Source of the DNA: an uncultured virus (IMG/VR IMGVR_UViG_3300013232_000154)
Taxonomy: Duplodnaviria; Heunggongvirae; Uroviricota; Caudoviricetes
Reading direction: 5' to 3' (one strand)
Length of the DNA: 64,000 nucleotides
IMG/VR virus record: IMGVR_UViG_3300013232_000154
The translations under genes and the position numbers were made by a program. Shown here one piece after another: positions 10,101-25,807 of the stretch; within the stretch, counting starts at the first letter, position 1; each line of letters begins with the position of its first letter. The notes beneath the pieces are model-generated. The model made no database searches and was not told the origin of the DNA. It saw only the letters and a list, made by a program, of their open reading frames with translations.

Positions 10101-10128
10101 TTGACTCGCGTGTATGATATGGTAGAGT
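10101..10128 (+). promoter_or_regulatory. promoter of tRNA array 1
   Basis: TTGACT-N16-TAGAGT with extended TG. Confidence 0.65.
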
Positions 10129-10177
10129 TCGCGTAAGGACGAATGGTTCGTCCTGCTTTAGGAGTCTAGAGTCTACA

Positions 10178-10294
10178 ATGCGTACCATGGCCGCCCACTT
10201 AGCGATGCATGCTTCCCTCTCCGCAGGGACAAGGGCCGCCGCGTTGTCGCATTTTGGTTGCCTGAGTCTCGATACCGGAGATTCAGGCCCCTAG
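10178..10294 (+). CDS. attenuator leader peptide of tRNA array 1 (38 aa)
   Basis: MRTMAAHLAMHASLSAGTRAAALSHFGCLSLDTGDSGP*; stop lies in antiterminator strand. Confidence 0.75.
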   Translation: MRTMAAHLAMHASLSAGTRAAALSHFGCLSLDTGDSGP

Positions 10295-10357
10295 ATCCCA
10301 AGGAAAAATCCGAACGGGGTCTAGGGGCGAACTGAAGAGGTTCGCCCCTTTTCTTTT
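10287..10357 (+). terminator. terminator/antiterminator switch
   Basis: Terminator AGGGGCGAAC/GTTCGCCCCT+TTTCTTTT (10323-10357); competing 13-bp helix 10287-10299/10316-10328. Confidence 0.8.
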
Positions 10358-10388
10358 GCCGTAAAAGAAGTTGTGAGATTGGAAGGAT

Positions 10389-10464
10389 CCAGGGTTGGTG
10401 TAGGTGGTACGCACGTAGGCCTGAAGAGCCTGAGGGTCCCGTCCGACTCGGGAACCCTGGACCA
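10389..10464 (+). tRNA. tRNA-Phe(GAA)
   Basis: Acceptor CCAGGGT/ACCCTGG-A-CCA; loop CT GAA GA. Confidence 0.75.
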
Positions 10465-10474
10465 TAAGGAAGAG

Positions 10475-10651
10475 ATGAAGCAGAAGGTGTTGGACGCGAT
10501 CAGGTTGAGAAAGGGCTTGGCAACCAGAATGTTCGATCTGAGACGCAGGAACAGAAAGGCATACGAGGAAGCCCTCCGCGTACTGCCACAAGAGCTGAGC
10601 GTAGACGTTCGCGATCACGTTGAGACGGCAGTCGTGTTGAGAGGCAAATGA
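10475..10651 (+). CDS. small hypothetical protein
   Basis: AAGGAAGAG SD. Confidence 0.5.
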   Translation: MKQKVLDAIRLRKGLATRMFDLRRRNRKAYEEALRVLPQELSVDVRDHVETAVVLRGK

Positions 10652-10697
10652 CGGGCTAATACGGTTCGTTCTTGGTTCCGAGATTGGCCTTGACGTA

Positions 10698-10716
10698 GAT
10701 CTTTGACAACGGAATA
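10698..10716 (+). promoter_or_regulatory. rrn-type boxA-like element
   Basis: GATCTTTGACAACGGAATA. Confidence 0.5.
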
Positions 10717-10792
10717 GCGCATGAAGTAACTTAGTCAACAAACGGCCTGGCGGGCGCTTAGCCCGCCAGGCCGAGACGTGAACGAGTTTCAT

Positions 10793-10867
10793 AGCGGCGA
10801 CGACAGCAGCGTCGACCTAGCTCTCATAAGGCTGGGGTGTAGAGTGCGAATCTCTCCGCCGCTACCA
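10793..10867 (+). tRNA. tRNA-Met/Ile2(CAT)
   Basis: AGCGGCG/CGCCGCT-A-CCA; CT CAT AA. Confidence 0.7.
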
Positions 10868-10892
10868 GATCCGTCTCAAAAACGGGTCACCA
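10868..10892 (+). ncRNA. microhelix with ACCA end
   Basis: GATCCGT-CTCAAAA-ACGGGTC-ACCA. Confidence 0.4.
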
Positions 10893-11017
10893 TGGCTGAA
10901 TGCCGTTGAGACTACATGGTGAAGCGATGGGGCCTAAAAAACCCCGTCTCGAGTTGGGTTCAAACCCCGACAATCTTGCCCTCGGGCAGGAGAAGTCTCA
11001 GCAACTTTTGTCAGCCA
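10893..11017 (+). ncRNA. Y RNA (YrlA)-like RNA 1
   Basis: GGCTGAATGC...TTGTCAGCC terminal stem with tRNA-like arms inside. Confidence 0.65.
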
Positions 11018-11099
11018 AAATTCAGGGGAAGATTCCAGTGAGAGACTGGACGGCGCTCGCAAGCGTCAGTGGTTCAAGGCAACCAGAACGTCCCCAGAT

Positions 11100-11175
11100 G
11101 CGGGTGTGGTGTAGCGGCTCTGCACGCGACTTTGCCAAAGTCGAGGTGCCGGATCGACCCCGGCCACCCGCTCCA
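11100..11175 (+). tRNA. tRNA-Gly(GCC)
   Basis: cloverleaf, TCCA end. Confidence 0.85.
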
Positions 11176-11186
11176 AGTTCCTAGGT

Positions 11187-11263
11187 GGTGTCTATGGTGT
11201 AGCGGCTCTGCACGCTTGACTGTGGATCAAGAGGTACGGGTTCAACTCCCGTTAGACACCCCA
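11187..11263 (+). tRNA. tRNA-His(GTG)
   Basis: G-1, C73, CCA. Confidence 0.9.
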
Positions 11264-11306
11264 AATTGCAGTTGCATGGCAATGTTGTAGCTGCATGTCA
11301 ATTTGT

Positions 11307-11381
11307 GGGCCGCTGGTATAATGGGATTACGCTTCCCTCGCACGGAAGAAATTCGGGTTCAATTCCCGAGCGCGTCCACCA
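11307..11381 (+). tRNA. tRNA-Ala(CGC)
   Basis: G3:U70; bulged acceptor. Confidence 0.75.
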
Positions 11382-11383
11382 AT

Positions 11384-11457
11384 GGGGGTATGATCTAACG
11401 GGATGATGTAGCCTTTGCAAGGCTAACGTCCGAGTTCGACTCTCGGTACCTCCACCA
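11384..11457 (+). tRNA. tRNA-Ala(TGC)
   Basis: G3:U70, ACCA. Confidence 0.9.
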
Positions 11458-11484
11458 TTTGTCATGAAGCAAAGGAACTTACTG

Positions 11485-11760
11485 ATGCCAAAAGTCGAAG
11501 AACATCCATTCAAAGATGGGGTTCAATATTGGTTTTGGTGTCCAGGCTGCAAAGGCAGTCACGCCTTCACCGTTCCTCCATGGACTTTCAATGGAGACAT
11601 TGAGAAACCAACCTTCACTCCATCGTTACTCTGTAATCAGTCTCATCCGCCATCAAGATGTCATTCGATAGTTACGGATGGAATGATTCATTTCTGTGGA
11701 GACTGTCATCACGAACTGGCTGGTAAGGTCGTACCGATGGAAGAAGCAAGACTTTGGTAG
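11485..11760 (+). CDS. DUF6527-like Zn-binding protein
   Basis: CPGC..H..WTFNGD..KPTFTPS..CHS..DCHH. Confidence 0.75.
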   Translation: MPKVEEHPFKDGVQYWFWCPGCKGSHAFTVPPWTFNGDIEKPTFTPSLLCNQSHPPSRCHSIVTDGMIHFCGDCHHELAGKVVPMEEARLW

Positions 11761-11765
11761 TAATG

Positions 11766-11899
11766 ATCCCGAATGCGCAAGCGAGTACATCGAAGACCGC
11801 CTCAGTGTGGGTTCGAATCCCACTCATGCCCGACGAGGGCATGATAGTCCAACTGGCAGAGACAGCGGGCAAAAGCCTCTCTTGCAATTTTGTCGGGAT
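11766..11899 (+). ncRNA. Y RNA (YrlA)-like RNA 2, canonical topology
   Basis: ATCCCGAATGC...TTGTCGGGAT; T arm, loop-closed acceptor, D arm; anticodon stem continues into long stem. Confidence 0.8.
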
Positions 11900-11904
11900 G
11901 ACTT

Positions 11905-11978
11905 GGGGCCATCGTCCAATAGGAGGACGCCAGGACGGCATCCTGGAAATTCGGGTGCAACTCCCGATGGTTCCACCA
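11905..11978 (+). tRNA. tRNA-Ala(GGC)
   Basis: G3:U70; loop AC GGC AT. Confidence 0.8.
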
Positions 11979-11980
11979 AT

Positions 11981-12067
11981 GAGCAGATCTTCTAAAAAAA
12001 ACGGGGATCCCCGAGGATACCGCCTTGAGTGGCGGAGATGAAGGCGAAAATCCTTCTCTGCTCTCCA
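11981..12067 (+). ncRNA. atypical tRNA-like RNA
   Basis: GAGCAGA/TCTGCTC-T-CCA; expanded D arm; 6-nt loop TTGAGT. Confidence 0.5.
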
Positions 12068-12070
12068 TTT

Positions 12071-12140
12071 GGGGCGATAGCCGGACAACCCGGCAGAGAT
12101 ACTTGGCCTTCAGCGGGTTCGAATCCCGTTCGCTCCACCA
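12071..12140 (+). ncRNA. Ala-acceptor tRNA-like RNA without a proper anticodon arm
   Basis: GGGGCGA/TCGCTCC-ACCA with G3:U70, canonical T arm. Confidence 0.55.
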
Positions 12141-12216
12141 TGGGAGATCGTCTAACGCCAGGACTCCGCGCAAACATGAGCGGATAACGGGGGTTAAACT
12201 CCCTCTCTCCCTACCA
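12141..12216 (+). ncRNA. tRNA-like RNA with aberrant anticodon loop
   Basis: D and T arms, ACCA; CCGC-GCAAACATGA-GCGG. Confidence 0.5.
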
Positions 12217-12235
12217 TATTCGCGTATGATCAATC

Positions 12236-12517
12236 ATGAACAAGAAAGAGATCATTGACGCAGTTCGTGCTTGTACTGAATGGACCATCGAAGATTTGGT
12301 CTCGTTAGAACAAATCGCTAAAGACCTACGCAGAGGAACAGTACGAGCAAGACGAGACTTGATTCCCGTCGGCCCTCGCAACGTCCATACCGAGCATTGT
12401 TGTCTGACTCATGGATGCAAGTATAGCGATCCGAAATGTCCCGTGGCGACTGGAAACAATAGACAGTCTTACGACTGCGAAGAATGCGGCTTGGAAGACG
12501 AAGGTTACTTTGATTGA
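12236..12517 (+). CDS. hypothetical Cys/His-rich protein
   Basis: HTEHCCLTHGCKY motif. Confidence 0.65.
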   Translation: MNKKEIIDAVRACTEWTIEDLVSLEQIAKDLRRGTVRARRDLIPVGPRNVHTEHCCLTHGCKYSDPKCPVATGNNRQSYDCEECGLEDEGYFD

Positions 12518-12521
12518 TTAT

Positions 12522-12716
12522 GGGGGATTGGTGTAATGGCGCACGCCGACTTGAAACGTCGGAGGAACGGGTTCGATTCCCGTACATTAGTCTCTGGCTA
12601 ATTTTGCCTGTCCTGGTTTCTGAAACCGCATGGGGCGTTTCACCTCATGTGAATGGAATCGGGTTCGCGGATGGCCAGCGTTAACAGGATACGGACAGGG
12701 ACTACATCCTCCACCA
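12522..12716 (+). ncRNA. tRNA(GAA)-like RNA interrupted by a 122-nt structured insert
   Basis: 5' acceptor, D, anticodon and T arms at 12522-12583; 3' acceptor ATCCTCC-A-CCA at 12706-12716. Confidence 0.65.
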
Positions 12717-12786
12717 TCTTCAAATGCCCCCTCTGGCGCTACGATCCGCCTTGATCAGCGGGGAGCGCTTTTGGGGGCTCCAGATT

Positions 12787-12861
12787 GGACCCGTAGTTTA
12801 ATAGTAGAACACTTGCCTGTCGAGCAAGAGGCGCGGGGAGCGTTACCCCTCGGGTCCGCCA
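12787..12861 (+). tRNA. tRNA-Asp(GTC)
   Basis: cloverleaf, GCCA. Confidence 0.85.
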
Positions 12862-12868
12862 TGTTCAT

Positions 12869-12954
12869 GTCACTGTGGCGTAATTGGCAGCCGCGCCAGC
12901 TTGAGGGGCTGGTGGGTAATTCCCGTGTGGGTTCGACTCCCACCAGTGACACCA
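12869..12954 (+). tRNA. tRNA-Leu(GAG)
   Basis: long variable arm, ACCA. Confidence 0.9.
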
Positions 12955-12962
12955 AACTTCAT

Positions 12963-13040
12963 GGGGTCGAGGCCGAAGAAGCCGAGGCGCTTCCCTGTCA
13001 CGGAAGAGTAAAGCGGGTGCGAGTCCCGTCGATCCCGCCA
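12963..13040 (+). tRNA. tRNA-Asp(GTC)
   Basis: cloverleaf, GCCA. Confidence 0.85.
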
Positions 13041-13098
13041 TACAAGTTATGAACTATTGCCATAGAAAATACGTTATTACGTCACAAAGGAGACTTAT

Positions 13099-14640
13099 AT
13101 GCCTACATCTATTGATGAACCAGTTCTTCAAGACATTGAGGTTGAGCAAGATGGCATTTTTGGATCTGTTTCAGACACGTTCGGTTCGTCTCCATGGTGG
13201 ATCGTCTCAGGAGCCTTTCATGGGTTGTTGTTGCTACTGGTCACGCTGATCAGCATGACTCTTATCAGACCAACCCAGAGCGACACTATAATGACCACCA
13301 ACTTAGAAAAATCAAAACCACCAGAATATGACGAGAAAAAGCCACGTGACGTATTCAAAAACGCGGTTCAAGTCACGGAAGACGGGCCAGTGGTTGAACA
13401 TCCAGTTGTTACCCATGATCTGGTTGAGGTATCCGATCATGTAGAGACAGCAGACGATATGGACATGGCAAAAGCCAAAGGCGACAACATGGACGCCATT
13501 TCCGACGTCCCGCTTGGCGGTGTTGGTTTTGTTGCGGCCATGGGTTTAGGCGGTGGCGGTGGAGGGGCTTTTGGTCAGCGTGGAGAAGGTGGAAAGCGAA
13601 GGCTAGTATCCAAGAATGGTGGGGGTCAAGTTACTGAAGATTCCGTATCCGCAGCATTGCGCTGGCTAGCTAGGCATCAAGAACAAGATGGACATTGGGA
13701 CACGATTAAATACGGATCCGATCAGAAAACAGATACCGCGTCTACTGGCTTTGCCCTCTTGGCATTCCTCGGCGCTGGACACACAGAGAAGGTTGGACAA
13801 TACAGGGACAATGTCAGGCGAGCTGTTGCATGGCTCAAGTCTAGGCAAAACGCGGATGGACTAGTGTTTGACCAGACCGATGCTGGAGCGCATCGTGGGG
13901 TTGGCTATCCGCACGCTATCGCTGGGATGGCTCTGGCTGAGGCCGCTGGAATGGGAAAGGTCGCCGACACCGTAAGCGCGGCCCAGAAAGCGATTTCCTA
14001 CAGCGTAGACAAGCATCAGAATGGAGACGGCTACGACAAGCGTGGCTTTAGGTATCAGCCAAAGCAACAAGGGGATTTATCTGTAACTGGTTGGTTCGTG
14101 ATGCAACTGAAATCAGCCAAAGTAGCTGGACTCAACGTTGATCATCAGAACTTTGAGGGCGTACTAAAGTTCCTTGACTCTGTGGAGCGCAAAGGACGCG
14201 GTGGAGACAAGGGGTACGGCCCAGCGTCTACTTATGCATACACTGCTGACAACGACCACGAACAGACTGCCCATAGACTAACGGCGATTGGCAACCTATG
14301 CCGACAGTTCTTGGGATGGAAAAAGGATGATTTGCAGGCAAGCGTTTCCTGGTTTGTTGAAAAGGGTGGAGTTCCGAATGGATGGGGAGAAGGACAGACG
14401 GATCTGTACTACTGGTACTACGGTACCCTTTGTACGTTCCAGCAGGGTGGCGATATTTGGAAACAATGGAACGAAGCCATGAAGAAGACTCTCTGTGGAA
14501 ACCAGCGCCAAGGAGGAGACGAAGACGGGTCATGGGACCCAGTCGGCGACTACTCCAAAGAATGGGGACGTGTTGGGCAAACCGCAATGTGTGCTCTATG
14601 CCTAGAAGTATACTACCGTTATTTGCCGATGTACAAATAA
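13099..14640 (+). CDS. membrane-anchored prenyltransferase/squalene-cyclase-repeat protein (Planctomycete type)
   Basis: TM with SxxxH, Gly-rich linker, ALRWLARHQxxDGxW, DLSVTGW, YYWYYGT, LEVYYRY. Confidence 0.8.
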   Translation: MPTSIDEPVLQDIEVEQDGIFGSVSDTFGSSPWWIVSGAFHGLLLLLVTLISMTLIRPTQSDTIMTTNLEKSKPPEYDEKKPRDVFKNAVQVTEDGPVVEHPVVTHDLVEVSDHVETADDMDMAKAKGDNMDAISDVPLGGVGFVAAMGLGGGGGGAFGQRGEGGKRRLVSKNGGGQVTEDSVSAALRWLARHQEQDGHWDTIKYGSDQKTDTASTGFALLAFLGAGHTEKVGQYRDNVRRAVAWLKSRQNADGLVFDQTDAGAHRGVGYPHAIAGMALAEAAGMGKVADTVSAAQKAISYSVDKHQNGDGYDKRGFRYQPKQQGDLSVTGWFVMQLKSAKVAGLNVDHQNFEGVLKFLDSVERKGRGGDKGYGPASTYAYTADNDHEQTAHRLTAIGNLCRQFLGWKKDDLQASVSWFVEKGGVPNGWGEGQTDLYYWYYGTLCTFQQGGDIWKQWNEAMKKTLCGNQRQGGDEDGSWDPVGDYSKEWGRVGQTAMCALCLEVYYRYLPMYK

Positions 14641-14645
14641 GTTAC

Positions 14646-14733
14646 GGTAGGTTGGCAGAGTGGTCTATCGCATCCGCCTTGAAAGCGGAAGGGCTGAAAG
14701 GCCCCGTGGGTTCGAATCCTACACCTACCGCCA
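14646..14733 (+). tRNA. tRNA-Ser(TGA)
   Basis: long variable arm, GCCA. Confidence 0.9.
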
Positions 14734-14774
14734 TCCTTGAAGGATGGAATGTCCCAAAGGTCGTAACTACGAGC

Positions 14775-15353
14775 ATGAAGATCAATCAGTGGCTATTATC
14801 CAACTGCCGCTTCGCCCAGACCAAGCCTTGGCAAATGACCTTGGATGAGTGGAAGAAACTCAACAACGTCCAGAAGGAATCGTACCAAGAGGCATTCAAT
14901 GCCACGTCCCCAATAGGTACCTTCCCGCATGATAGGGAAAAGGTCGTGTGGCGCGACGAGGGCGCGTACTCCTTCACTTCTCCTAACGGCAAAAAGTACG
15001 TTTGGGACATCGTCAAGACCGAGTTCACTCCTAAACATTGGGGCTCTCCAAACGTCACGCGTTACCTAGCCACCGCTCCTGGTTCTGACGTCCCTTTGGC
15101 TGGATTGGTCATCAACAACAGGATCAATCAAGCGGTTGCAGCGCATGCCTTGGAAAACAAAGTCGGGCTAATGCAAGAACTGCTTAGAAGGGCCAAGAAG
15201 GACTTCGGATCCATCTCTGGGGCTAGTCCGATGTCGAGTCAAGGGGCCAAGATGTTGCATCGCTTCGAGATAATGGAAGCATTGAAGGCTGGGGAGCAAG
15301 TCTCACCAGAGGTTTTGAAAGATTACCCAGATCTACAAGGTATGATTCGTTAG
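14775..15353 (+). CDS. hypothetical protein with N-terminal W-x4-CRFA motif
   Basis: INQWLLSNCRFA; PWQMT; C-terminal VLKDYPDL. Confidence 0.65.
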   Translation: MKINQWLLSNCRFAQTKPWQMTLDEWKKLNNVQKESYQEAFNATSPIGTFPHDREKVVWRDEGAYSFTSPNGKKYVWDIVKTEFTPKHWGSPNVTRYLATAPGSDVPLAGLVINNRINQAVAAHALENKVGLMQELLRRAKKDFGSISGASPMSSQGAKMLHRFEIMEALKAGEQVSPEVLKDYPDLQGMIR

Positions 15354-15381
15354 CTCGTCTACCACGTGTAGAAGGAGCAAC

Positions 15382-15411
15382 GGCCCCGCCCGAAGGCCTT
15401 CGGGCGGGGCC
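15382..15411. repeat. perfect 30-bp GC-rich palindrome
   Basis: GGCCCCGCCCGAAGG/CCTTCGGGCGGGGCC. Confidence 0.85.
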
Positions 15412-15495
15412 AGCCTAACTCATCGGCCAGCGAGAGCGTAAGCGCCGAAGGAGATGGGTCTGGCCTCTGGTCAGACCTTTATCAAGGAGCAGACC

Positions 15496-15783
15496 ATGAC
15501 GCTCGGAGAGATCTCTGAACCCCTTGGCAAACGCGGATTCGTGACTCGTGAGAAGTGGTGTCGTGAGTACGACAACCCAGAGGTTGTAGGAACGACGAAA
15601 TGCGTCTTGCATTTTGGGATGGACAACGTGGCCTGGCTTTGCTTACGCGAGAACGACTTGATCCAGCGCCAAAGCAACTATGGACGCCATGCCTCGATGA
15701 CATCCGGGCCATGGACTGGATCAAGCTTCCGTTCTTCTGGAATGGGTCACAAGATGACTTCCTTCCGTTTGAACGATAGTTGA
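15496..15783 (+). CDS. hypothetical protein
   Basis: AAGGAG SD. Confidence 0.5.
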   Translation: MTLGEISEPLGKRGFVTREKWCREYDNPEVVGTTKCVLHFGMDNVAWLCLRENDLIQRQSNYGRHASMTSGPWTGSSFRSSGMGHKMTSFRLNDS

Positions 15784-15829
15784 GAATAGAGTTTTCTGGC
15801 TGTCGAGGACAGTCAGCATACGCATTTGA

Positions 15830-15916
15830 CGCGGGATAGACTAGAGGTCAAAGTCACAAGGCTCATAACCTTGGCTGCGCAAGCAGACGCAGGTTCGAAT
15901 CCTGCTCCCGCTACCA
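15830..15916 (+). tRNA. tRNA-Met(CAT), initiator-like 1:72 mismatch, long variable arm
   Basis: CGCGGGA/TCCCGCT-ACCA. Confidence 0.8.
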
Positions 15917-15931
15917 CTAGGAGAATGAAGC

Positions 15932-16330
15932 ATGAAAATCGCCTTCGAAACAGAATCAAGCTGGCCAACTCCTCCATTCGAAGTTATGCAATGGGCAAGT
16001 AGAGAGCTTGAACTAGGGTACAAGTTCATCCTCTACATTGATCCAGATCCCCGTGATGAGAAGAGTGAGAAGTGTTACATCCTTCAAAACGGACGCGAAT
16101 ATGTTCGCATCTTCCTCAAGAACATTGATGGAAACGTTCAAGTCGGTTGCAAGCAAATGCCAGAATACCCTCGGTACTGTTCCCGATGTGATGGTCTTCT
16201 TCAGAAAGAAAACCTCGTGGGGACGCTGGCAATATGCAAGACATGCTTGCGCCCAGACGATAGGCCTCCATTGGACAACCATTACTGGGGGTGGGATTTC
16301 TACTCTGGATACTCTGGAATGGCCCAGTAG
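15932..16330 (+). CDS. hypothetical protein
   Basis: AGGAG SD; CxxC pairs. Confidence 0.6.
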   Translation: MKIAFETESSWPTPPFEVMQWASRELELGYKFILYIDPDPRDEKSEKCYILQNGREYVRIFLKNIDGNVQVGCKQMPEYPRYCSRCDGLLQKENLVGTLAICKTCLRPDDRPPLDNHYWGWDFYSGYSGMAQ

Positions 16331-16397
16331 CCCAATTGGCAGCGGCATCTGACTTAAGATCAGAGAGTTGCGAGTTCGAATCTCGCCTGGGCTACCA
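16321..16397 (+). tRNA. tRNA-Leu(TAA), short variable arm
   Basis: cloverleaf, ACCA. Confidence 0.85.
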
Positions 16398-16577
16398 CTT
16401 CTCAAGATACTTGTTGATCAGATCGGCAAGAGCATCGTTCTCAATATAGAAAAGATCATCATTCCGCAGGTGTTTAACGACCTCCAAAATCTGCCCGACA
16501 CGGAAGTCTCTCTTGCCAGCCCTCTTGAGAGCCTTGAATAGCTTGTCTTGCTTGGTTCTGTCTGGTGTCTTCATCAT
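16392..16577 (-). CDS. small antisense-oriented protein between tRNAs
   Basis: GGAG SD; DDLFYIENDAL motif. Confidence 0.55.
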   Translation of the reverse strand: MMKTPDRTKQDKLFKALKRAGKRDFRVGQILEVVKHLRNDDLFYIENDALADLINKYLEKW

Positions 16578-16587
16578 TCGCTCCAAT

Positions 16588-16662
16588 GGCGCGGTAGCCC
16601 AATGCAGAGGCGCATGCTCGAGAAGCATGTTCGTGTGGGTTCAAATCCCACTCGCGCCACCA
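16588..16662 (+). tRNA. tRNA-Leu(GAG), C33, short variable arm
   Basis: cloverleaf, ACCA. Confidence 0.75.
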
Positions 16663-16757
16663 TCATAGCGCATAGGAATCGTGCTTGCAATACATTTTAG
16701 TCGTGGTAGTATCCTTGAGACATGGTGCGGGTTCCGTTACCAATCAAGGAGCTAAAG

Positions 16758-17954
16758 ATGAGCAGGTTCCCACTAGGCGAACGTAATCCACCTCGCGATA
16801 TCGGGTTGAAGAAGCTTGATTATTACGCTCCAGCAGAAGTGACCCGCCGAGACAGCATCCCGCTTGAAAACCTCGTACCAGCCAATACTGGCAAGTTCGA
16901 CTTCCAGCGCGATGGCTGGAGGATTCGCGACCAAATCATCCTCAAGACAAACGTCGGTAGGGAAACCGCGTTGAGTCGCTTCCTTACTTGTTTCCAAGAT
17001 CCAGGCAAGAAGTACGAGCCAAACGTCTATGCCATCTGCAAGGACGAATGGGAAAAGAAAAGACAGTCGCTCAAGATGACCAAGTTAAGCGTATCCGTCG
17101 AGTACAGAGAGGGAATGCGACCAGAAGGTGAGTCGCAAGTCCTGGCCTCGATAACGGCGACGTACTACGGTTCAGAGATCTATGGACACGAAGGCCGTTT
17201 GGTCATCAATGGTGGATGGGACAAGCTGGCCGAACATCTCGGGCCGATGGTCTTGAAGGAAGGCGCAAGCCTGGACCCAGCAGTAGCCAAGATCGAGCAA
17301 GATGCCCACGATTTCAACAAAGGAAAAGAGAAGGTATACGGCTGGGAAATGCATCCAGACACTTGGAAGAAGATCATGGATGCTTACGCCACGCTGCCTC
17401 ACTTGGCTGGTGGTCGAGTATTCTTGGACGACAGCGACCTCGTGTTGGTCAGATCCAATCCAACGCTTCTGCATAACAACAGAATGAAGGCGATCCAAGA
17501 GAAGCTTGAGACGAGCAATGCCAGCCCCTCGGCGTGGGACAGCGTGTATGAAGTCGAACAAGAAAACGGAAAGGTATTCATCACGTTTGATGGCGAGACG
17601 GCACACATCCTATCGGTAAGCCGAGAATTCACGAAGCCAGAACGCAAACCTCTTGACTTAAAGGTGAACCAGAAGCTTTTTGCCCTTGGTCTTCCACTGA
17701 CCTTGAACAAAAGGGTGAGCAAGGACACGATTAAGCCAGTCTACACAAAGCCATCTCAGAGACGCGAGAACAAGGATCTCATTGTGATGGGGAACATCGA
17801 AGACATAGACATTAAGGGCCTCAAGAAGAAGCTTGACGAACAGGCTCGTGTTCGGGCGGAGCGCGTGAAATACGAGGTTCAGTACATCCAAGGCGAGGGA
17901 CCAGAGGCCGAGGTACGGATCACTGGTCGGAACCCAGATAGGGATGAACGATGA
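16758..17954 (+). CDS. hypothetical protein
   Basis: long ORF, AAGGAG SD. Confidence 0.75.
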   Translation: MSRFPLGERNPPRDIGLKKLDYYAPAEVTRRDSIPLENLVPANTGKFDFQRDGWRIRDQIILKTNVGRETALSRFLTCFQDPGKKYEPNVYAICKDEWEKKRQSLKMTKLSVSVEYREGMRPEGESQVLASITATYYGSEIYGHEGRLVINGGWDKLAEHLGPMVLKEGASLDPAVAKIEQDAHDFNKGKEKVYGWEMHPDTWKKIMDAYATLPHLAGGRVFLDDSDLVLVRSNPTLLHNNRMKAIQEKLETSNASPSAWDSVYEVEQENGKVFITFDGETAHILSVSREFTKPERKPLDLKVNQKLFALGLPLTLNKRVSKDTIKPVYTKPSQRRENKDLIVMGNIEDIDIKGLKKKLDEQARVRAERVKYEVQYIQGEGPEAEVRITGRNPDRDER

Positions 17955-18421
17955 GCAAGAAAACGAAAACTGAGAAAGCCGCCCCAGCCCCAGCGATGAT
18001 GTGTGGGGCATGTCGAAATTTTTACGTGAGTGGGACACCAGTTAGGGTCTCGTCTCTTGAGCCTGCACTTCAAGAAGAGCTTTACGGAGCGGATAAAGAA
18101 AAGAAAGTTGTCAAACTCCGCGTACCAATGATAAAAAGTTTTGGTGATCAAGGGGTAAAATGGATTCGAGAAGCATCCCAATCCAAAAATGTTATCCTGT
18201 CTTATGACATCGGTCACAACCAGATCAGGACGTTTCATGGAACCGAGGTCATTGAATTCAGGATCATTGCTAGGCCAGGCGACAGGATGGAAATCGAGTT
18301 TTTGTTCGCGTACCATCACACCGAGGACGGATGTTCCCCACCACCCGAATATTACTCTCCAGCAAGGGTAATGACGTGGAACGATTGGGACGAATTCATA
18401 GCAAAAGGGATGGCGCGGTAG
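17951..18421 (+). CDS. hypothetical protein
   Basis: ATGA-coupled. Confidence 0.6.
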   Translation: MSKKTKTEKAAPAPAMMCGACRNFYVSGTPVRVSSLEPALQEELYGADKEKKVVKLRVPMIKSFGDQGVKWIREASQSKNVILSYDIGHNQIRTFHGTEVIEFRIIARPGDRMEIEFLFAYHHTEDGCSPPPEYYSPARVMTWNDWDEFIAKGMAR

Positions 18422-18487
18422 CCCAATAGCAGAGGCGCATGGCTCAGAACCATGTTGTTGTGGGTGCGATTCCCACCCGCGCTACCA
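18412..18487 (+). tRNA. tRNA-Leu(CAG)
   Basis: cloverleaf, ACCA. Confidence 0.85.
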
Positions 18488-18501
18488 GTAAGGAGTTACG
18501 A

Positions 18502-18693
18502 ATGTTTGATTCATTTCTTTGTAAGCTGGTTATGTTTCTTTTCATCGTTAGCAACCTCATCTTCATCGGAAAATCTTCCCTAGGAAGAGAAGGCGTTAAC
18601 GAGCCATGCATAATTTCTGGACTCATCGCCACATTCTTCTGTTCTCTCAGCTTGCTACAAGGATGCTTCAAGCGAGACAAGGAAATCTTATGA
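18502..18693 (+). CDS. small membrane protein
   Basis: two hydrophobic helices, SD. Confidence 0.55.
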   Translation: MFDSFLCKLVMFLFIVSNLIFIGKSSLGREGVNEPCIISGLIATFFCSLSLLQGCFKRDKEIL

Positions 18694-18848
18694 TCAGACT
18701 TGTCTGTTCGATCTGCGCTGCCATTTGCGCGATCATGAACTTGATTCTGTTCTGCATGGGGCGTGATAACAAGCCAACCTTATTCATGTTCTTCTTTTTT
18801 TCTACGCTCTTCTTCTACTTGACCATAAGGGAGATCAAAAAGCGATGA
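18690..18848 (+). CDS. small membrane protein
   Basis: two hydrophobic helices, coupled. Confidence 0.5.
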   Translation: MIRLVCSICAAICAIMNLILFCMGRDNKPTLFMFFFFSTLFFYLTIREIKKR

Positions 18849-19339
18849 CCCCGCAGATCTACCGCAATTTCATAAGTGGCGCATACTGCATCGTCTTCGG
18901 TACGATCAAGCATTCCAATGGAGAAGACGTCGTCCTCTATCAAGGAATTCTTGATGGCAAGATGCAAGTCATGCCAGAGCGTCAATGGGGCGAATACGTT
19001 GGACCAGCCATGTCTGGAACACCACTTTTTCAATTGGTCAAACCGATGCCGTTTAACCTGCCTGGCGGTCATACGCTTGTCGTTCACTGCAAGAAGGCTC
19101 CTTATGACGTTTACATCGGGCGTCCATCGAAGTGGGGTAACCCGTACAAGGTCGGACCGATCACCCGTGAGGAGGCGATTGAAAAGTACCTTCAAGACCT
19201 CATCAACGATCCGTTCCTCCTGAGCCACATCAACGAGATTCAAGGCAAGGTTCTTGGCTGCTACTGCAAGCCAGAAGCTTGTCATGGTGATATTCTGGCT
19301 CGTTTGGCTAACGCGTACAACATTTCTGCGTCCTTATAG
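18845..19339 (+). CDS. DUF1653-like/DUF4326 fusion protein
   Basis: YDVYIGRPSKWGNPY, LGCYCKPEACHGDIL. Confidence 0.75.
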   Translation: MTPQIYRNFISGAYCIVFGTIKHSNGEDVVLYQGILDGKMQVMPERQWGEYVGPAMSGTPLFQLVKPMPFNLPGGHTLVVHCKKAPYDVYIGRPSKWGNPYKVGPITREEAIEKYLQDLINDPFLLSHINEIQGKVLGCYCKPEACHGDILARLANAYNISASL

Positions 19340-19406
19340 TGTAGCGGATTCTGCACGGCTGTCTCCGAAGCAGCAAGTGGAGGTTCAACTCCTCCTGAGG
19401 ACGCCA
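19330..19406 (+). tRNA. tRNA-Arg(CCG)
   Basis: cloverleaf, GCCA. Confidence 0.85.
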
Positions 19407-19414
19407 GTTTTCAT

Positions 19415-19486
19415 GCCCCAGTGACGCGGTCGTCAGTCCTCCTTGGTAAGGAGGTCGCGCAGGCTCAACTCCTGCCTGGGGCTCCA
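19415..19486 (+). tRNA. tRNA-Thr(GGT)
   Basis: cloverleaf, short D arm. Confidence 0.8.
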
Positions 19487-19490
19487 GGAT

Positions 19491-19567
19491 GGCCCAGTAG
19501 CCCAATTAGCAGAGGCGCTAGTTTCAAGAACTAGAGGTTGTGGGTGCAAGTCCCACCTGGGCTACCA
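19491..19567 (+). tRNA. tRNA-Leu(CAA)
   Basis: cloverleaf, ACCA. Confidence 0.85.
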
Positions 19568-19599
19568 AATCAGCACGATTTTCCTTGACTTCGGCTCAC

Positions 19600-19675
19600 G
19601 CCCCATTAGTGTAGCGGAACAGCATTGCTCGGTCCTAACGAGCAGGAGAAGGTTCGACTCCTTCATGGGGTGCCA
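19600..19675 (+). tRNA. tRNA-Arg(CCT)
   Basis: cloverleaf, GCCA. Confidence 0.85.
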
Positions 19676-19678
19676 AAC

Positions 19679-20095
19679 ATGACCAAGTACGTGGTTGGTT
19701 TCTACTACGTGACGCATCCGAACACCGTTCTTCTCATTCGCAAGAAGCGCCCAGACTGGCAGAAGGGCCTTTTGAACGGAGTCGGAGGACACGTAGAGAA
19801 CGACGAGTCAGACGTAGCGGCCATGCGAAGGGAATTCGAGGAAGAAGCTGGGATAGACGTAATCGGGTGGCGGTCTTTCCTTGAAATCAAGCGTGATCCA
19901 GGGTTCCACATCACCTTTTTCTATTTCAAAGGTGAGCGCGGGGAGATGAACAACATCCATGCCCGTACGGACGAGCAGCTTGAATGGCATGCCATGAACA
20001 GGCTCCCAGACGACATCATTCCGAATTTGGCTTGGATCATACCTCTTTCTTTGGAGCGGGAGATTGAAGGCCCGCTTATAATCAATTACAAGTAA
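19679..20095 (+). CDS. NUDIX hydrolase
   Basis: GGHVENDESDVAAMRREFEEEAG Nudix box. Confidence 0.9.
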   Translation: MTKYVVGFYYVTHPNTVLLIRKKRPDWQKGLLNGVGGHVENDESDVAAMRREFEEEAGIDVIGWRSFLEIKRDPGFHITFFYFKGERGEMNNIHARTDEQLEWHAMNRLPDDIIPNLAWIIPLSLEREIEGPLIINYK

Positions 20096-20103
20096 GGAGA
20101 TTT

Positions 20104-20177
20104 GCGGGTATAGCACAATGGTAGTGCGCGAGATTTCCAATCTCGTTACGAGGGTTCGATTCCCTCTACCCGCTCCA
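20104..20177 (+). tRNA. tRNA-Gly(TCC)
   Basis: cloverleaf, TCCA. Confidence 0.9.
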
Positions 20178-20190
20178 TTTAGGAGGATAC

Positions 20191-20267
20191 GCGTCCATAG
20201 TGTCAATAGCCGAGCATGAGACCCTTCCAAGGTCTAGGGGAGAGCGCAAGTCTCTCTGGACGCTCCA
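20191..20267 (+). tRNA. tRNA-Gly(TCC)
   Basis: cloverleaf, TCCA. Confidence 0.8.
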
Positions 20268-20272
20268 AAATC

Positions 20273-20632
20273 ATGAAAGTCATCGTAGCTGGTTCCCGTG
20301 GCATTCTAGACTACTCCATCGTGGAGAAGGCCATCAAGGAGTCTGGTTTCGATGTCACTGAAGTCGTATCGGGAGGAGCTCGCGGAGTCGATCAGCTTGG
20401 CGAAAGATGGGCTCGCGAGCATGATGTCGCCATACGCCAGTTCCTCCCGGACTGGACCACTCACGGCAAGAGCGCTGGGTTCATCAGGAACGATCTGATG
20501 GTCAAGCATGCTCAAGGCCTGATCTGCATTTGGGACGGCTCGAGTCGCGGAACCAAGCATACGCTTGCACAAGCGCTCAAGAAAGGGATTCCCGTACATC
20601 TCGTACGGACTGACGACGCGGGTATGGTGTAG
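20273..20632 (+). CDS. SLOG/YspA-like (DUF2493) protein
   Basis: VIVAGSR, VSGGARGVD, GKSAGFIRN, WDGSSRGT. Confidence 0.85.
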   Translation: MKVIVAGSRGILDYSIVEKAIKESGFDVTEVVSGGARGVDQLGERWAREHDVAIRQFLPDWTTHGKSAGFIRNDLMVKHAQGLICIWDGSSRGTKHTLAQALKKGIPVHLVRTDDAGMV

Positions 20633-20691
20633 TGGCAACACGCAACCTTCCCAAGGTTGAGATGCGGGTCCGATTCCCGCTTCCCGCTCCA
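20618..20691 (+). tRNA. tRNA-Gly(CCC)
   Basis: cloverleaf, TCCA. Confidence 0.85.
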
Positions 20692-20715
20692 TTCAGAGAA
20701 TTAGGGGCTTGATCC

Positions 20716-21420
20716 ATGAGGCCTAGCTACGTCAGCAAGAAGGGCAAGTTGGTCGAACTGAACATATCGTTACATGCAAAATGTAGGTTTGTGAGTCGAT
20801 GGCGCAAGGTCTTCGTTGGAGAGAGGCCTCCAGATGACGTTGAGGCCGAGATTTGCAGGCTATTCGAAACCGCCTCAAGAGTCAGCAGCTTCACAAAAAG
20901 AGACAAAATGCGGATGAAGCGGTACGGAAGTGATACCATGTTCTTCAGGACGGAAGACTTCACGTTCGTAGTACAAGACTCGACCATATTGACGATTGAG
21001 GTCAGCAAGGAAGGCATGAGGTACCTCAACAAGAAGAGCGCCCAGCCGTTACCCGCGTACATTCCATCGACTACTAAAAGCTACGATTACAACTCGCGAT
21101 ACACCGCTCCAGATTCTCGTCTGAAGATCGTGGCATCGGCCATCACCGACGAAGGAAAGATGAAGTTTGTTAACCTTGGAAGGTATGGTTCCACCGTTGA
21201 ACGTCTTAACACGGACGCTGACTTTGAGAAGGAAATGATGGATAGGTTTGCGTTCAAGCATCCGACTTGGCGTATGATTGGTCTATACGTGAACGTGTCG
21301 AAAAGAAACCATGGCAGTGATTTGCAAGTCGTGAATACGGCGCTGTTCCAGGCGGCTCCTGGGCCTCGTCTGCAAAGCGAGGACAAAGAGGGTTCGACTC
21401 CCTCCAGCGCCTCCAATTAG
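20716..21420 (+). CDS. hypothetical protein (3' end runs through tRNA-Cys)
   Basis: long ORF; ISLHAKCRF start. Confidence 0.6.
   Translation: MRPSYVSKKGKLVELNISLHAKCRFVSRWRKVFVGERPPDDVEAEICRLFETASRVSSFTKRDKMRMKRYGSDTMFFRTEDFTFVVQDSTILTIEVSKEGMRYLNKKSAQPLPAYIPSTTKSYDYNSRYTAPDSRLKIVASAITDEGKMKFVNLGRYGSTVERLNTDADFEKEMMDRFAFKHPTWRMIGLYVNVSKRNHGSDLQVVNTALFQAAPGPRLQSEDKEGSTPSSASN
21339..21415 (+). tRNA. tRNA-Cys(GCA)
   Basis: GGCGCTG/CAGCGCC, U73. Confidence 0.8.
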
Positions 21421-21429
21421 GAGGATTCC

Positions 21430-21948
21430 ATGAGCGAACGTTGCTTGCCAGAAGATACCGCTAAGAAGGCCATGTGTCTTCTAATGCTCCACGATCAAGA
21501 AAAACTACCTCGTGATCTCGATCGGATAGAGCGAAGGATATGTTGGCATGCCAAGAACATCGCCGAAGAGGCAGAGCATGCCGACATCATCAAAGCGGTT
21601 GATGAATTGTACGCAACCCTTGAGGTCGAAAAGCTGATGGGTCCGCTCCCATGCTACGAGGAGCGATGCTTCATCTGCGACAAAAAGCTAGAGTCTTCCG
21701 TGGGAGAGTTCTTCAAGGAAGACCCGAAAGAGTTGCTTGGCCTTCCTCCTTCTGGAGGCATAGCGTTCGAGACTTGCGGGAACTATGGAAGCACGGTTTT
21801 CGACTCCATGTCTGGGGCCAGCTTGCAGATCGTGATCTGCGACGAATGCGTTAAGGCTCGCCAGGAAAAGGTCGTGTTTTTTAGGACGCACAGAGTGAAC
21901 GAAAGCTATAATTGGAAGAGATGGGAACCCACCAAGGACTATGATTGA
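21430..21948 (+). CDS. hypothetical protein
   Basis: GGAGG SD; GNYGSTVFD..ICDEC. Confidence 0.7.
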   Translation: MSERCLPEDTAKKAMCLLMLHDQEKLPRDLDRIERRICWHAKNIAEEAEHADIIKAVDELYATLEVEKLMGPLPCYEERCFICDKKLESSVGEFFKEDPKELLGLPPSGGIAFETCGNYGSTVFDSMSGASLQIVICDECVKARQEKVVFFRTHRVNESYNWKRWEPTKDYD

Positions 21949-22037
21949 GGAGAGTGAAGCGGACAAGCGCACCGCCATCGGCTCGAACCCGATTGGGACC
22001 CATGAGGTCTGAGGGGCAGGCCCTCCGCTCTCCGCCA
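21949..22037 (+). tRNA. tRNA-Ser(CGA)
   Basis: long variable arm, GCCA. Confidence 0.8.
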
Positions 22038-22218
22038 TAAGGGACAAGAACAATGGAATGCTACGTTCTGATCGACAAGAAGTCCGTCAAGGACTTAAGC
22101 AAAGCCATCGGATTCCAGATGCCTGGAAACCCCAAGTTCATCTGGCCCGAATATGAGGGAGCAATGAAGTTCTGGCGATCGAACCCAGAGGTTCAAGCTA
22201 ACTTCAACGTGGTCAAAG

Positions 22219-22848
22219 TCACTCTTCAGTTTTCCGAGTGATGAATTTCAACAGTTCTTCTCTTCCAGTGATGACGGCAAAAGGCATCGTCTTTCCACCA
22301 TCTTGCGTCACGCCAGCAACGCCTAAGCCACAAAGCTTTCCCTCCTTCGTGTAGACTGGGCTACCGCTGCTGCCGTGGTTGAATTTCTCTATCTTTGCGA
22401 CCCATCTTCCCAATGGTATCTCGGAAAGGATCACGCCTTCTTGTAGCGTCATCTTCTTGTCGGCATAGAAATTCGGGTTCATGACCACTTGAGTTTGCTG
22501 ATTGTTCTTCTTGTCAAGTTCAACGGTTTCTGGAGGAGAAAGCTTCGGCTCAAGCAAGCATAGGTCATGTTCGATGTCGATTTTGACTACCTTGCATCGG
22601 ATCCATCCGACTGGGAAGTCGACCATGATCTGATCCGCATCCTTCCCCTTCTCGTTCTTGACGATGTGGGCGGCGGTCAAAACGACCTTCTTTCCATCGA
22701 CTTTGATAGGAACGCACAAGCCATGCCCAGTGACAACCTTGTCTCCGTCCTCGAAATCAGAGCGTACGAGATAGGCTGGGTAGTCTTGGGCCAGAGCGGA
22801 CAAGGCCAGGGCGAACAAGGTCGCGATACATAGTGGGATGGATTTCAT
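22219..22848 (-). CDS. secreted trypsin-like serine protease
   Basis: Signal peptide; LTAAH, DLCLL, GSSGSP catalytic triad. Confidence 0.85.
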   Translation of the reverse strand: MKSIPLCIATLFALALSALAQDYPAYLVRSDFEDGDKVVTGHGLCVPIKVDGKKVVLTAAHIVKNEKGKDADQIMVDFPVGWIRCKVVKIDIEHDLCLLEPKLSPPETVELDKKNNQQTQVVMNPNFYADKKMTLQEGVILSEIPLGRWVAKIEKFNHGSSGSPVYTKEGKLCGLGVAGVTQDGGKTMPFAVITGREELLKFITRKTEE

Positions 22849-22898
22849 AGTTCACCTCCCATTCGTAAGTTCATCGGATGCATGGGCTAAGCCTTCAC

Positions 22899-22991
22899 GG
22901 AGCGTCAATTGGACAAGCGAGCCAACACTCGGTGCTAACGAGTTGGTACCTCGAAGAGGGGTATGAGGGGCGGGACCTCGGCGCTCCGCCA
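22899..22991 (+). tRNA. tRNA-Ser(GCT)
   Basis: long variable arm, GCCA. Confidence 0.8.
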
Positions 22992-23051
22992 TTTTTAACG
23001 AGGAACAACTCGTCCATTGTTTAAGCACAACAATAGGACGAGGGTACGACG

Positions 23052-23891: not shown

Positions 23892-23901
23892 TATCATTAA
23901 T

Positions 23902-23991
23902 GGAGAACGAAGCGGACAAGCGAGCCGCCACTCGTTGGAAGCGAGTTGGGCCTCGAAAGGGGCTGAGAGGCAGGATCTCCGTTCTCCGCCA
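23902..23991 (+). tRNA. tRNA-Ser(GGA)
   Basis: long variable arm, GCCA. Confidence 0.8.
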
Positions 23992-23995
23992 TCAT

Positions 23996-24082
23996 GGACG
24001 ATGAACCAGCGAAGCGCTGGAACTGCCTTGAAAGCAGATTGGGCTCAAGGGGCCTGGGGAGCATGTCCTCCGTCGTCCGCCA
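23996..24082 (+). tRNA. tRNA-Ser(TGA)
   Basis: long variable arm, GCCA. Confidence 0.75.
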
Positions 24083-24112
24083 TCACCGTATGATCATGAC
24101 AGGAGAAATGAA

Positions 24113-24703: not shown

Positions 24704-24733
24704 CGGTATCATTGATGGACTCGGAGATTGGAC

Positions 24734-25144: not shown

Positions 25145-25377
25145 CCAAGGAAGACCTTCTCGATGCGGCCACGGACAACCAAGAGGCCGTCACGGAGAGC
25201 AACATCTGTGGATGTTTCGTATGCGGAAAGGTGTACCCAAGCGTAGACGTGGACGAGTTCATTGGGGCTACTGCGGTATGCCCAGTCTGCAAGAAGCAAG
25301 GAGTTCTTCCTTCTTCCACCGAGCTTCCAGTTCATGACGAGTCGTTCCTGAACGAGATCAAGAACAAATTCTTTTAG
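25141..25377 (+). CDS. Zn-binding small protein
   Basis: CGCFVC..TAVCPVC. Confidence 0.7.
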   Translation: MTKEDLLDAATDNQEAVTESNICGCFVCGKVYPSVDVDEFIGATAVCPVCKKQGVLPSSTELPVHDESFLNEIKNKFF

Positions 25378-25387
25378 GAGATCAAGG

Positions 25388-25660: not shown

Positions 25661-25668
25661 TTTTAGAT

Positions 25669-25745: not shown

Positions 25746-25807
25746 TCTTTCATGCGCTGTTCCGTGGATTGTTGAAGGATTGTGCCAAAAAAGATAGAAC
25801 TTTTAGT

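Follow-up and report, generated by a model that had tools for sequence, protein, structure and literature searches.

Leader-peptide attenuators control amino-acid operons of enterobacteria. Multivalent examples are the thr leader, which responds to Thr and Ile, and the ilvGMEDA leader, which responds to Ile, Leu and Val; the leaders of trp, his, leu and pheA also belong to these systems. T-box riboswitches bind one uncharged transfer RNA (tRNA) directly and regulate synthetase or amino-acid genes. In Firmicutes, Term-seq has revealed ribosome-stalling attenuators of antibiotic-resistance genes, where the input is a drug acting on the ribosome. Here, we describe two units of this general kind in a 64,000-nucleotide stretch of DNA (the window) from an uncultured virus of the Caudoviricetes, IMG/VR record IMGVR_UViG_3300013232_000154, each placed ahead of an array of tRNA genes. 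Both units are probably ribosome-mediated (leader-peptide) transcription attenuators that gauge the decoding of the codons served by their own arrays.

The units share with the enterobacterial attenuators a short open reading frame (ORF) between a promoter and an intrinsic terminator, mutually exclusive antiterminator and terminator helices, and a stop codon placed so that a finishing ribosome would block the antiterminator; the second unit also has a helix between regions 1 and 2 (the 1:2 helix). However, the genes to be regulated are tRNA genes and phage ORFs rather than biosynthetic enzymes, the leaders sample 11 to 23 anticodons, mostly once or twice, instead of carrying runs of codons for one to three amino acids, and unit 1 lacks a clear 1:2 helix. 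The regulatory codons fit what the regulated genes produce in a new sense, as they match the anticodons of the downstream tRNA genes. Like T-box riboswitches, the units offer a choice between antiterminator and terminator in a leader, with the state of tRNA as the proposed input, but here the codons lie in a translatable frame and Rfam finds no T-box. The antibiotic-resistance attenuators are similar in that a ribosome stalled on a small upstream ORF lets the antiterminator form and in that the default depends on where the ribosome is; the input here would be the supply of particular tRNAs and not a drug. The layout and composition logic are shared by the promoter, small ORF and terminator units ahead of tRNA blocks in phiCbK-like phages (JX100813 and relatives). 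These have no sequence similarity to the units described here, and their match is weaker per phage and missing in one of three small ORFs.

The class of mechanism is textbook, while the tRNA-gene target and the multiplexed, array-matched codon content are, as far as could be found, undescribed. In a search limited to open-access full texts, no paper was found that connects attenuation or leader peptides with the tRNA genes of phages or viruses. This agrees with the original prediction, made from the sequence alone, according to which no such description was known for phage tRNA arrays. A term search of a paper on phage tRNAs and defences (PMC10264068) gave no occurrence of 'attenuat', 'terminator', 'promoter' or 'leader'. 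For the phiCbK units, the annotation in the record and in the genome paper goes no further than a hypothetical protein and predicted terminators, and a term search of that paper gave no occurrence of 'attenuat' or 'leader'.

Architecture of the two leader units

Unit 1 (10101-10357) contains a sigma-70-like promoter, a 5' hairpin, a leader ORF of 38 codons, an antiterminator and a terminator, and all five were found where the original prediction had placed them, see Table 1. Transcription is predicted to start near 10135. The 5' arm of the antiterminator contains the stop codon (10292-10294) together with the final Pro codon. The antiterminator and the terminator have six bases in common (10323-10328), i.e., they are mutually exclusive. 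Folding bears out the claim that the stop codon sits in the antiterminator and that this helix competes with the terminator. The 226-nt leader folds far better than shuffled sequences (z -5.2, 0/200 as good).

When the unit 1 leader is folded as a whole, the antiterminator wins and the terminator is reduced to a 5-bp remnant that does not abut the T run. If instead a ribosome at the stop codon is mimicked by blocking its footprint (10277-10307), the folds show the complete terminator. Thus, unit 1 would read through by default and would terminate only if a ribosome reaches the end of the ORF in time. The hairpin in the last third of the leader ORF could possibly act as a pause hairpin for RNA polymerase. 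An Rfam search of unit 1 gave nothing for Thr_leader, and the best matches are sub-threshold terminator-like small RNAs.

A second, parallel unit (25807-26020), which is absent from the original prediction, is located between the two arrays and ahead of array 2. Its promoter has the same layout as that of unit 1, and its transcription start is predicted near 25841. Unit 2 has the complete four-region layout of an attenuator, with the helices 1:2, 2:3 and 3:4. The stop codon of leader ORF 2 (25967-25969) lies immediately 3' of the 5' arm of the antiterminator, while the 3' arm of the antiterminator (25992-26003) lies inside the 5' arm and loop of the terminator, so that the two are mutually exclusive. 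The naked RNA folds as the 1:2 helix plus the terminator (z -6.8 versus shuffles). In Rfam, the region 25892-26022 matches Thr_leader (RF00506) with 35.6 bits, which is below the gathering threshold of 55 (E 3e-5 in the local search and 0.0026 over 26 kb), and 25910-26023 matches His_leader (RF00514) with 25.3 bits, below the threshold of 49. As both scores are below gathering, unit 2 resembles these families and is not a member of either.

The first gene of array 1 is a tRNA-Phe that starts at 10389, 32 nt past the terminator of unit 1. A promoter scan found no + strand promoter-like site between either terminator and its first tRNA, and the only + strand terminator-like sites with at least 10 pairs in 1-47 kb are the terminators of units 1 and 2. 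The arrays would thus be reachable only by read-through. No strong + strand terminator was found inside array 1 by the terminator scan.

The codons of each leader match its own array

The + strand from 10389 to 31855 carries tRNA genes interspersed with ORFs. In this region ARAGORN with default settings reports 37 tRNAs, 21 of them in 10389-25745, and Rfam at the gathering threshold reports 31, three of which are missing from the ARAGORN list. Four tRNAs that had been listed in the original prediction are absent from the default ARAGORN output (Ala-GGC, Ser-GGA, Ser-CGA and Ser-GCT), and all four are backed by cloverleaf or Rfam evidence. Degenerate or odd tRNA-like genes were left out of the anticodon sets.

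A codon was counted as decodable if an anticodon of the array reads it by Watson-Crick pairing or with a G:U or U:G wobble at the third position. By this rule, 36/38 codons of leader 1 are decodable by array 1 and 23/24 anticodons are sampled; with Watson-Crick pairing only, the counts are 28/38 and 19/24. Against array 2, leader 1 has a single decodable codon (1/38) and samples one of the 11 anticodons. The codons of leader 1 without an array-1 tRNA are CGT and the final CCC, and the Arg-CCG anticodon is not sampled. CGT and Arg-CCG had both been named correctly as exceptions beforehand. A further claimed exception, that Leu-TAG has no codon in the leader, is right for Watson-Crick codons, but this tRNA could read CTG by a U:G wobble.

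For leader 2, 15/28 codons are decodable by array 2 and all 11 anticodons are sampled (13/28 and 10/11 with Watson-Crick pairing only), and against array 1 the counts are 12/28 codons and 12/24 anticodons. The leader has a core of 16 codons (25901-25948), in which 15 are decodable by array 2 and which samples all 11 of its anticodons.

The background for the statistics is the codon usage of the phage, taken from 8,172 codons in 27 ORFs; in these genes array 1 decodes 51% of the codons and array 2 27%. Among 1,000,000 random strings drawn from this usage, none reaches the decodable count of leader 1, and its anticodon coverage has p = 1.5e-5. The corresponding values for leader 2 are p = 1.6e-3 for decodable codons and p = 7.9e-4 for anticodons sampled. 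In a further test, the 35 anticodons were re-dealt 24/11 between the arrays. The observed coverage, 34/35 anticodons sampled, is reached in 0/200,000 deals, and the observed decodable count of 51/66 has p = 1.85e-4.

The match is also the best in the whole window. In all six frames of the 64 kb, 12 of 45,507 stop-free windows of 38 codons reach 36 decodable codons, and all 12 overlap the frame of leader 1. Similarly, 6 of 78,906 windows of 16 codons sample all 11 array-2 anticodons, and all are in leader 2. With windows of 28 codons the leader-2 region still ranks first, but full sampling of the 11 anticodons is then also seen in 60 windows, of which some lie elsewhere. Because the extra Ser tRNAs had been sought on the word of the original prediction, the comparison with array 1 was repeated with the 20 anticodons of default ARAGORN only. 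Leader 1 then has 28/38 decodable codons and samples 19/20 anticodons. Only three windows attain both values, each of them in leader 1, whereas the count of 28 decodable codons taken alone is reached by 103.

Threonine is the only amino acid served by both arrays. The Thr codons of leader 1 are those read by Thr-GGT and Thr-TGT, while leader 2 uses the codon of Thr-CGT twice. All 5/5 Thr codons are Watson-Crick matches to the Thr anticodons of their own array (p = 0.012 under phage usage). No link between the order of the codons in a leader and the order of the tRNAs in its array was seen by eye. The codon match and its statistics are, like the sequence features and the competing helices, direct observations on this DNA.

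Proposed mechanism

We infer leader translation, ribosome stalling, read-through and the physiological trigger from the sequence. In the proposed mechanism, a host-type promoter would start transcription and a ribosome would translate the short leader ORF behind the polymerase. When all codons are read fast, the ribosome would arrive at the stop codon and cover the 5' arm of the antiterminator, the terminator would form and transcription would stop before the first tRNA. When any codon is read slowly, the ribosome would lag, the antiterminator would form first and the polymerase would enter the array. As leader 1 consists almost only of array-1 codons and the core of leader 2 of array-2 codons, each array would be switched on by poor decoding of its own codons.

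The two units would differ in their default. In unit 2, the 1:2 helix would act as a lock, so that untranslated transcripts terminate. The array-2 codons lie on and just past region 1, and a ribosome stalled there would break the lock. Unit 1 would instead be a pure race across 38 codons.

Host tRNAs can be lost during phage infection, and tRNA-targeting defences exist. The trigger could be such a loss, caused by the infection or by the defences, or a negative feedback exerted by the phage tRNAs, and one does not exclude the other. Self-regulation of tRNA dosage would fit equally well as host tRNA loss via anticodon nucleases, the trigger put forward in the original prediction.

Related units in other phages

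Blastn of 9800-10700 against the phage collection gave no match, and no relatives were found among viral contigs (protein-anchored and tRNA-pattern scans) or genome contigs (tRNA-pattern scans). Contigs of about 90% identity occur in three of four sequencing runs, none of which is recorded as RNA although one may be, and are collinear with the window over leader 1 (X1, X3 and X4) and over leader 2 (X1). Ends of X3 contigs lie near the terminator and tRNA-Phe, to which we attach no meaning. Over leader 1, the three contigs cover 9815-10627 with 77 differences and 5 gaps, 9869-10365 with 41 differences and 9869-10374 with 44. Over leader 2, the region 25539-26636 has 67 differences and 17 gaps.

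Scans of metagenomes gave only two short and distant loci, L001 (3.6 kb) and L002. L001 has three tRNAs in the same order as the window, with a protein of 41% identity and a tRNA of 98% identity, and it ends short of both leaders. At L001:85-380 there is a consensus promoter and a 5' hairpin as in both units. The next 250 nt or so carry three copies of a short motif and no terminator.

In the record of the Caulobacter phage phiCbK (JX100813), three rho-independent terminators are annotated immediately ahead of tRNA blocks (48120-48166, 49745-49769 and 51465-51502), and a small ORF lies ahead of each of the three. The residue counts for this family were made by hand. In the 45-residue ORF of block B, 31/45 residues are those of its own block (Pro, Lys, Leu, Ala and Ser by ARAGORN), and 41/45 when Thr and His are added; a block-B Thr tRNA is present in Rogue and BL10, and a block-B His tRNA in Rogue, BL10, CcrPW and Colossus. 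The CcrPW leader is much diverged and has 29/39 residues from its own block, or 35/39 with Thr. The Colossus leader has a very different sequence with the same composition.

In the 32-residue ORF of block C, 12 residues are Phe, Val, Ile, Gln or Gly, including 9/12 in residues 7-18. This ORF also has seven Arg residues, and an Arg tRNA ends the block in Rogue and BL10. A segment of the block-C ORF pairs over 12 bp with the 5' arm of the terminator before the 3' arm is made. ARAGORN also reports tRNAs that are unannotated in GenBank, namely Thr, His and Ala in Rogue (L005 3001, 3749 and 3825) and Ala and Ile in phiCbK (L004 3684 and 5233).

The original prediction expected leaders to track array content in related phages. 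In the phiCbK family this is seen at the level of the family, but not for recent losses of Ser tRNAs: the predicted leaders follow the family's block and not recent losses. The window is a particularly clear example, as a single genome has two units and each of them fits its own array.

It can be speculated that these units represent a widespread class in large phages, i.e., multiplexed codon-sampling attenuators in which a mini-ORF takes the ribosome once over each served codon class. A sub-array would be on when any of the corresponding host isoacceptors is missing, for instance through anticodon nucleases or other tRNA-targeting defences, and off once phage tRNAs, possibly nuclease-resistant, restore decoding. 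Such a per-isoacceptor damage sensor and homeostat for the translation apparatus would act at the level of tRNA species and not of amino acids. We regard a class of this breadth as conceivable but doubtful.

Points against attenuation and alternative explanations

A number of observations weigh against the reading of the two units as codon-sampling attenuators. At the level of expression signals, leader ORF 1 has its Shine-Dalgarno motif 13 nt ahead of the ATG, a long spacing compared with the mostly 4-9 nt in the 34 phage genes that were checked, and the motif is partly buried in a weak hairpin. Promoter-like sites are not more frequent than in shuffled sequence (11 found and 12.6 expected in 9-28 kb), and therefore the call of the unit 1 promoter rests on its position and on the parallel in unit 2. 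The number of terminator-like sites is not above shuffles either (23 found versus 19.0 expected). No convincing anti-antiterminator was found in the folds of unit 1, and the naked transcript would read through, unlike that of classic attenuators. The sole candidate is a weak long-range pairing of the ribosome-binding region with 10291-10298, which appears in one truncated fold only.

Other points concern the codons. In leader 2, 13/28 codons are not array-2 codons; 12 are readable by array 1, and its two Asn codons and its CGT codon have no phage tRNA. Most leader codons occur once or twice, which gives a low sensitivity to mild shortage; the switch would need strong depletion or summed delays, and not runs of codons as in the his and thr leaders. 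When the peptides are kept fixed and synonymous codons are resampled, significance is moderate for the summed number of sampled anticodons (p = 0.004-0.024 under the different rules) and absent for decodable codons (p 0.05-0.35). Most of the signal thus comes from how the amino acids are divided between the two leaders, combined with an unusual diversity of synonymous codons. The codon-level match of the original prediction stands as the best in the window, with a signal beyond the amino-acid level that is moderate. Among the phiCbK-like phages, just 3/20 residues match in the ORF ahead of the Glu/Asp pair, and Rogue and BL10, whose blocks are without Ser tRNAs, still have the block-B leader at 84-91% identity. 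Nevertheless, the core of the original prediction, a leader-peptide attenuator that samples the codons of its own array, is favoured by the competing helices, the lack of an intervening promoter in the scan, the codon match and the second unit, and it stands as a likely reading.

The units could also be stand-alone small RNA genes, of about 220 nt for unit 1 and about 180 nt for unit 2, with incidental frames and with arrays that are expressed by leaky read-through or from unrecognised promoters. The unusual stability of both RNAs and the strong terminators at their ends agree with this, an open frame of 38 codons is no rarity in random DNA, the protein collection does not contain the leader ORF as a called gene and the ribosome-binding spacing of leader 1 is long. 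However, such genes leave it unexplained why both frames are the best matches in 64 kb to their own downstream arrays, why re-dealt anticodon sets fail to fit as well, and why each stop codon is placed within or next to the 5' arm of a helix competing with the terminator; in addition, no Rfam small-RNA family is matched at threshold. We consider this explanation unlikely. It is decidedly unlikely, in our opinion, that the ORFs encode functional micro-proteins of 38 and 28 residues whose codon content is irrelevant, the terminators being partial stops that set the ratio of peptide to downstream products. Two unrelated leaders are both restricted to the amino acids of the downstream tRNAs, and the leaders of CcrPW and Colossus are far from that of phiCbK in sequence and have the same composition, which is expected if the codon content and not a folded peptide is selected. 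Tiny genes do abound in the early regions of phages, and phiCbK has its block-B ORF annotated as a hypothetical protein; this ORF is well conserved in Rogue and BL10. No homologue of the leader-1 peptide was found in the protein collection, where the window's own ORF was not matched either.

The switch might be real and respond to another input, either general translation capacity and coupling or amino-acid starvation, in which case the codon match would just ensure good translation once the phage tRNAs are present. This would suit the default read-through of unit 1 whenever no ribosome reaches the stop codon, the single occurrence of most codons and the moderate codon-level signal given the peptides. 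Yet a general sensor needs no partition of amino acids, whereas leader 1 has one array-2 codon in 38 and the Thr codons are split by array, 5/5. We therefore find a different input improbable, and it overlaps with codon-sampling attenuation, since negative feedback by phage tRNAs is one of the two triggers proposed for the latter. Finally, the leader RNA might sense tRNAs directly, with codon-like bases that pair with anticodons without a ribosome. T-box leaders also use an antiterminator and terminator pair and respond to tRNA. Here, Rfam gives no T-box match over either leader, whether at the gathering threshold or with E up to 10. The matching triplets share a single frame, which begins at an ATG preceded by a Shine-Dalgarno motif and ends at a stop codon, and one RNA would need to bind more than 20 different tRNAs. 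Direct sensing is therefore extremely unlikely.

The tRNA arrays and their surroundings

The window is part of a 128,945-bp contig of a large uncultured phage. Its protein genes include a Dda-like helicase, ThyX and a ParB-like protein. The phage has no close cultured relative, and the best matches of the helicase are about 31% identical. Coordinates of the two units, the arrays and the tRNAs discussed here are given in Table 1.

The three tRNA-Ser genes of array 1 are paralogous type-II cloverleaves, each with a G73 discriminator and an encoded CCA. Their T loop is without the usual consensus, which defeats both ARAGORN and the Rfam tRNA model. Rfam also reports a second Asp-GTC tRNA at 12963-13040. 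A 3' CCA is encoded in nearly all tRNA genes of 10389-31855.

Several tRNAs in the arrays have unusual forms. Two are of type-II length with a long variable arm, at 15830-15916 with a Met (CAT) anticodon and at 28256-28341 with an Ile (GAT) anticodon, so that their actual amino acids may differ from those of the anticodons. The former is 98% identical in the distant relative (L001:889-975), while the adjoining protein is just 41% identical. Leu anticodons are also found in five short tRNAs of 75-77 nt that, unlike bacterial tRNA-Leu, have no long variable arm (16321-16397, 16588-16662, 18412-18487, 19491-19567 and 25669-25745), and the only Leu tRNA of the usual type is at 12869-12954. Degenerate or odd tRNA-like genes are found at 26359-26443, 28436-28508, 12141-12216, 12071-12140, 12528-12584 and about 26100-26205; some have anticodon loops of 6 or 8 bases, some are without CCA and one is a truncated Phe-like copy.

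Sub-threshold Rfam matches to YrlA (bacterial Y RNA-like) occur within the arrays at 27176-27309, 26292-26354 and 11766-11902, the best with 46.9 bits versus a gathering threshold of 69. These elements have a common short motif beside a tRNA-like T arm, and similar motifs are present near 10868-10990, 12690-12710, 29430-29480 and L001:130-330. They look like a family of Y RNA-like modules that are carried with the tRNAs. Between an ORF and the CAT tRNA in array 1, there is a very strong, G+C-rich hairpin of 13 bp (10743-10773), which scores as a minus-strand terminator; on the + transcript it would be a stable hairpin without a T run.

Protein genes are also embedded in the arrays, among them squalene-hopene-cyclase/prenyltransferase-like, amidoligase, histidine-phosphatase-family and DUF4326 genes (13099-14640, 23052-23891, 28601-29236 and 18845-19339). 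If the attenuators work, these genes would be co-regulated with the tRNAs.

Table 1. Coordinates of the leader units, the tRNA arrays and selected tRNA genes in the window.
Feature	Position	Strand	Details
Unit 1 promoter, sigma-70-like (-35, extended -10)	10101..10128	+	9/12 consensus matches, TG before -10
Unit 1 5' hairpin at transcript start	10136..10154	+	folding
Leader ORF 1 Shine-Dalgarno motif	10160..10164	+	13 nt before ATG; partly in weak hairpin 10155-10172
Leader ORF 1	10178..10294	+	ATG, 38 codons + stop
Hairpin in last third of leader ORF 1	10260..10288	+	folding
Unit 1 antiterminator hairpin	10287..10328	+	up to 13 bp, -30.5 kcal/mol
Unit 1 intrinsic terminator	10323..10357	+	stem-loop 10323-10349, 11 pairs (7 G-C), -20.6 kcal/mol; T run to 10357
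Array 1	10389..25745	+	24 distinct anticodons, 11 amino acids; about 20 ORFs interspersed (ARAGORN, Rfam, cloverleaf script)
tRNA with CAT anticodon	10793..10867	+	75 nt, CCA encoded; missed by ARAGORN and Rfam
tRNA-Ala (GGC)	11905..11978	+	Rfam; lower-threshold ARAGORN; cloverleaf script; missed by default ARAGORN
Type-II tRNA-Ser (CGA)	21949..22037	+	atypical T loop; missed by ARAGORN and Rfam
Type-II tRNA-Ser (GCT)	22899..22991	+	atypical T loop; missed by ARAGORN and Rfam
Type-II tRNA-Ser (GGA)	23902..23991	+	atypical T loop; missed by ARAGORN and Rfam
Unit 2 promoter	25807..25834	+	10/12 consensus matches; layout as unit 1 promoter
Unit 2 5' hairpin	25844..25862	+	folding
Leader ORF 2	25883..25969	+	ATG, 28 codons + stop; Shine-Dalgarno motif 7 nt upstream
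Unit 2 regions 1:2, anti-antiterminator helix	25891..25979	+	-43.3 kcal/mol; encloses small hairpin 25926-25944
Unit 2 antiterminator, regions 2:3	25955..26003	+	25955-25966 pairs with 25992-26003, 12 bp, -24.0 kcal/mol
Unit 2 intrinsic terminator, regions 3:4	25986..26020	+	14 pairs (25986-26018), -24.7 kcal/mol, T run
Array 2	26212..31855	+	tRNAs with 11 distinct anticodons (Glu, Tyr, Ile, Gln, Pro, Trp, Thr-CGT) and ORFs

Implications for phage tRNA genes

The role of tRNA genes in phages has been debated for decades, the proposals being codon compensation, the replacement of degraded host tRNAs and the escape from tRNA-targeting defences. To the best of our knowledge, the regulation of these genes has hardly been discussed. 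The phiCbK-like Caulobacter phages are cultured and genetically tractable, which makes the idea of array-matched attenuators directly testable. If it is true, the leaders would be compact natural sensors of tRNA availability that are usable as reporters. Classical attenuation would then cover the supply of tRNAs as well as that of amino acids, with more than 20 codon types instead of one to three. The units would also be a built-in readout of the tRNAs that the phage expects to run short, and the phage would measure the decoding of the codons that its tRNAs serve and express each tRNA block on demand.

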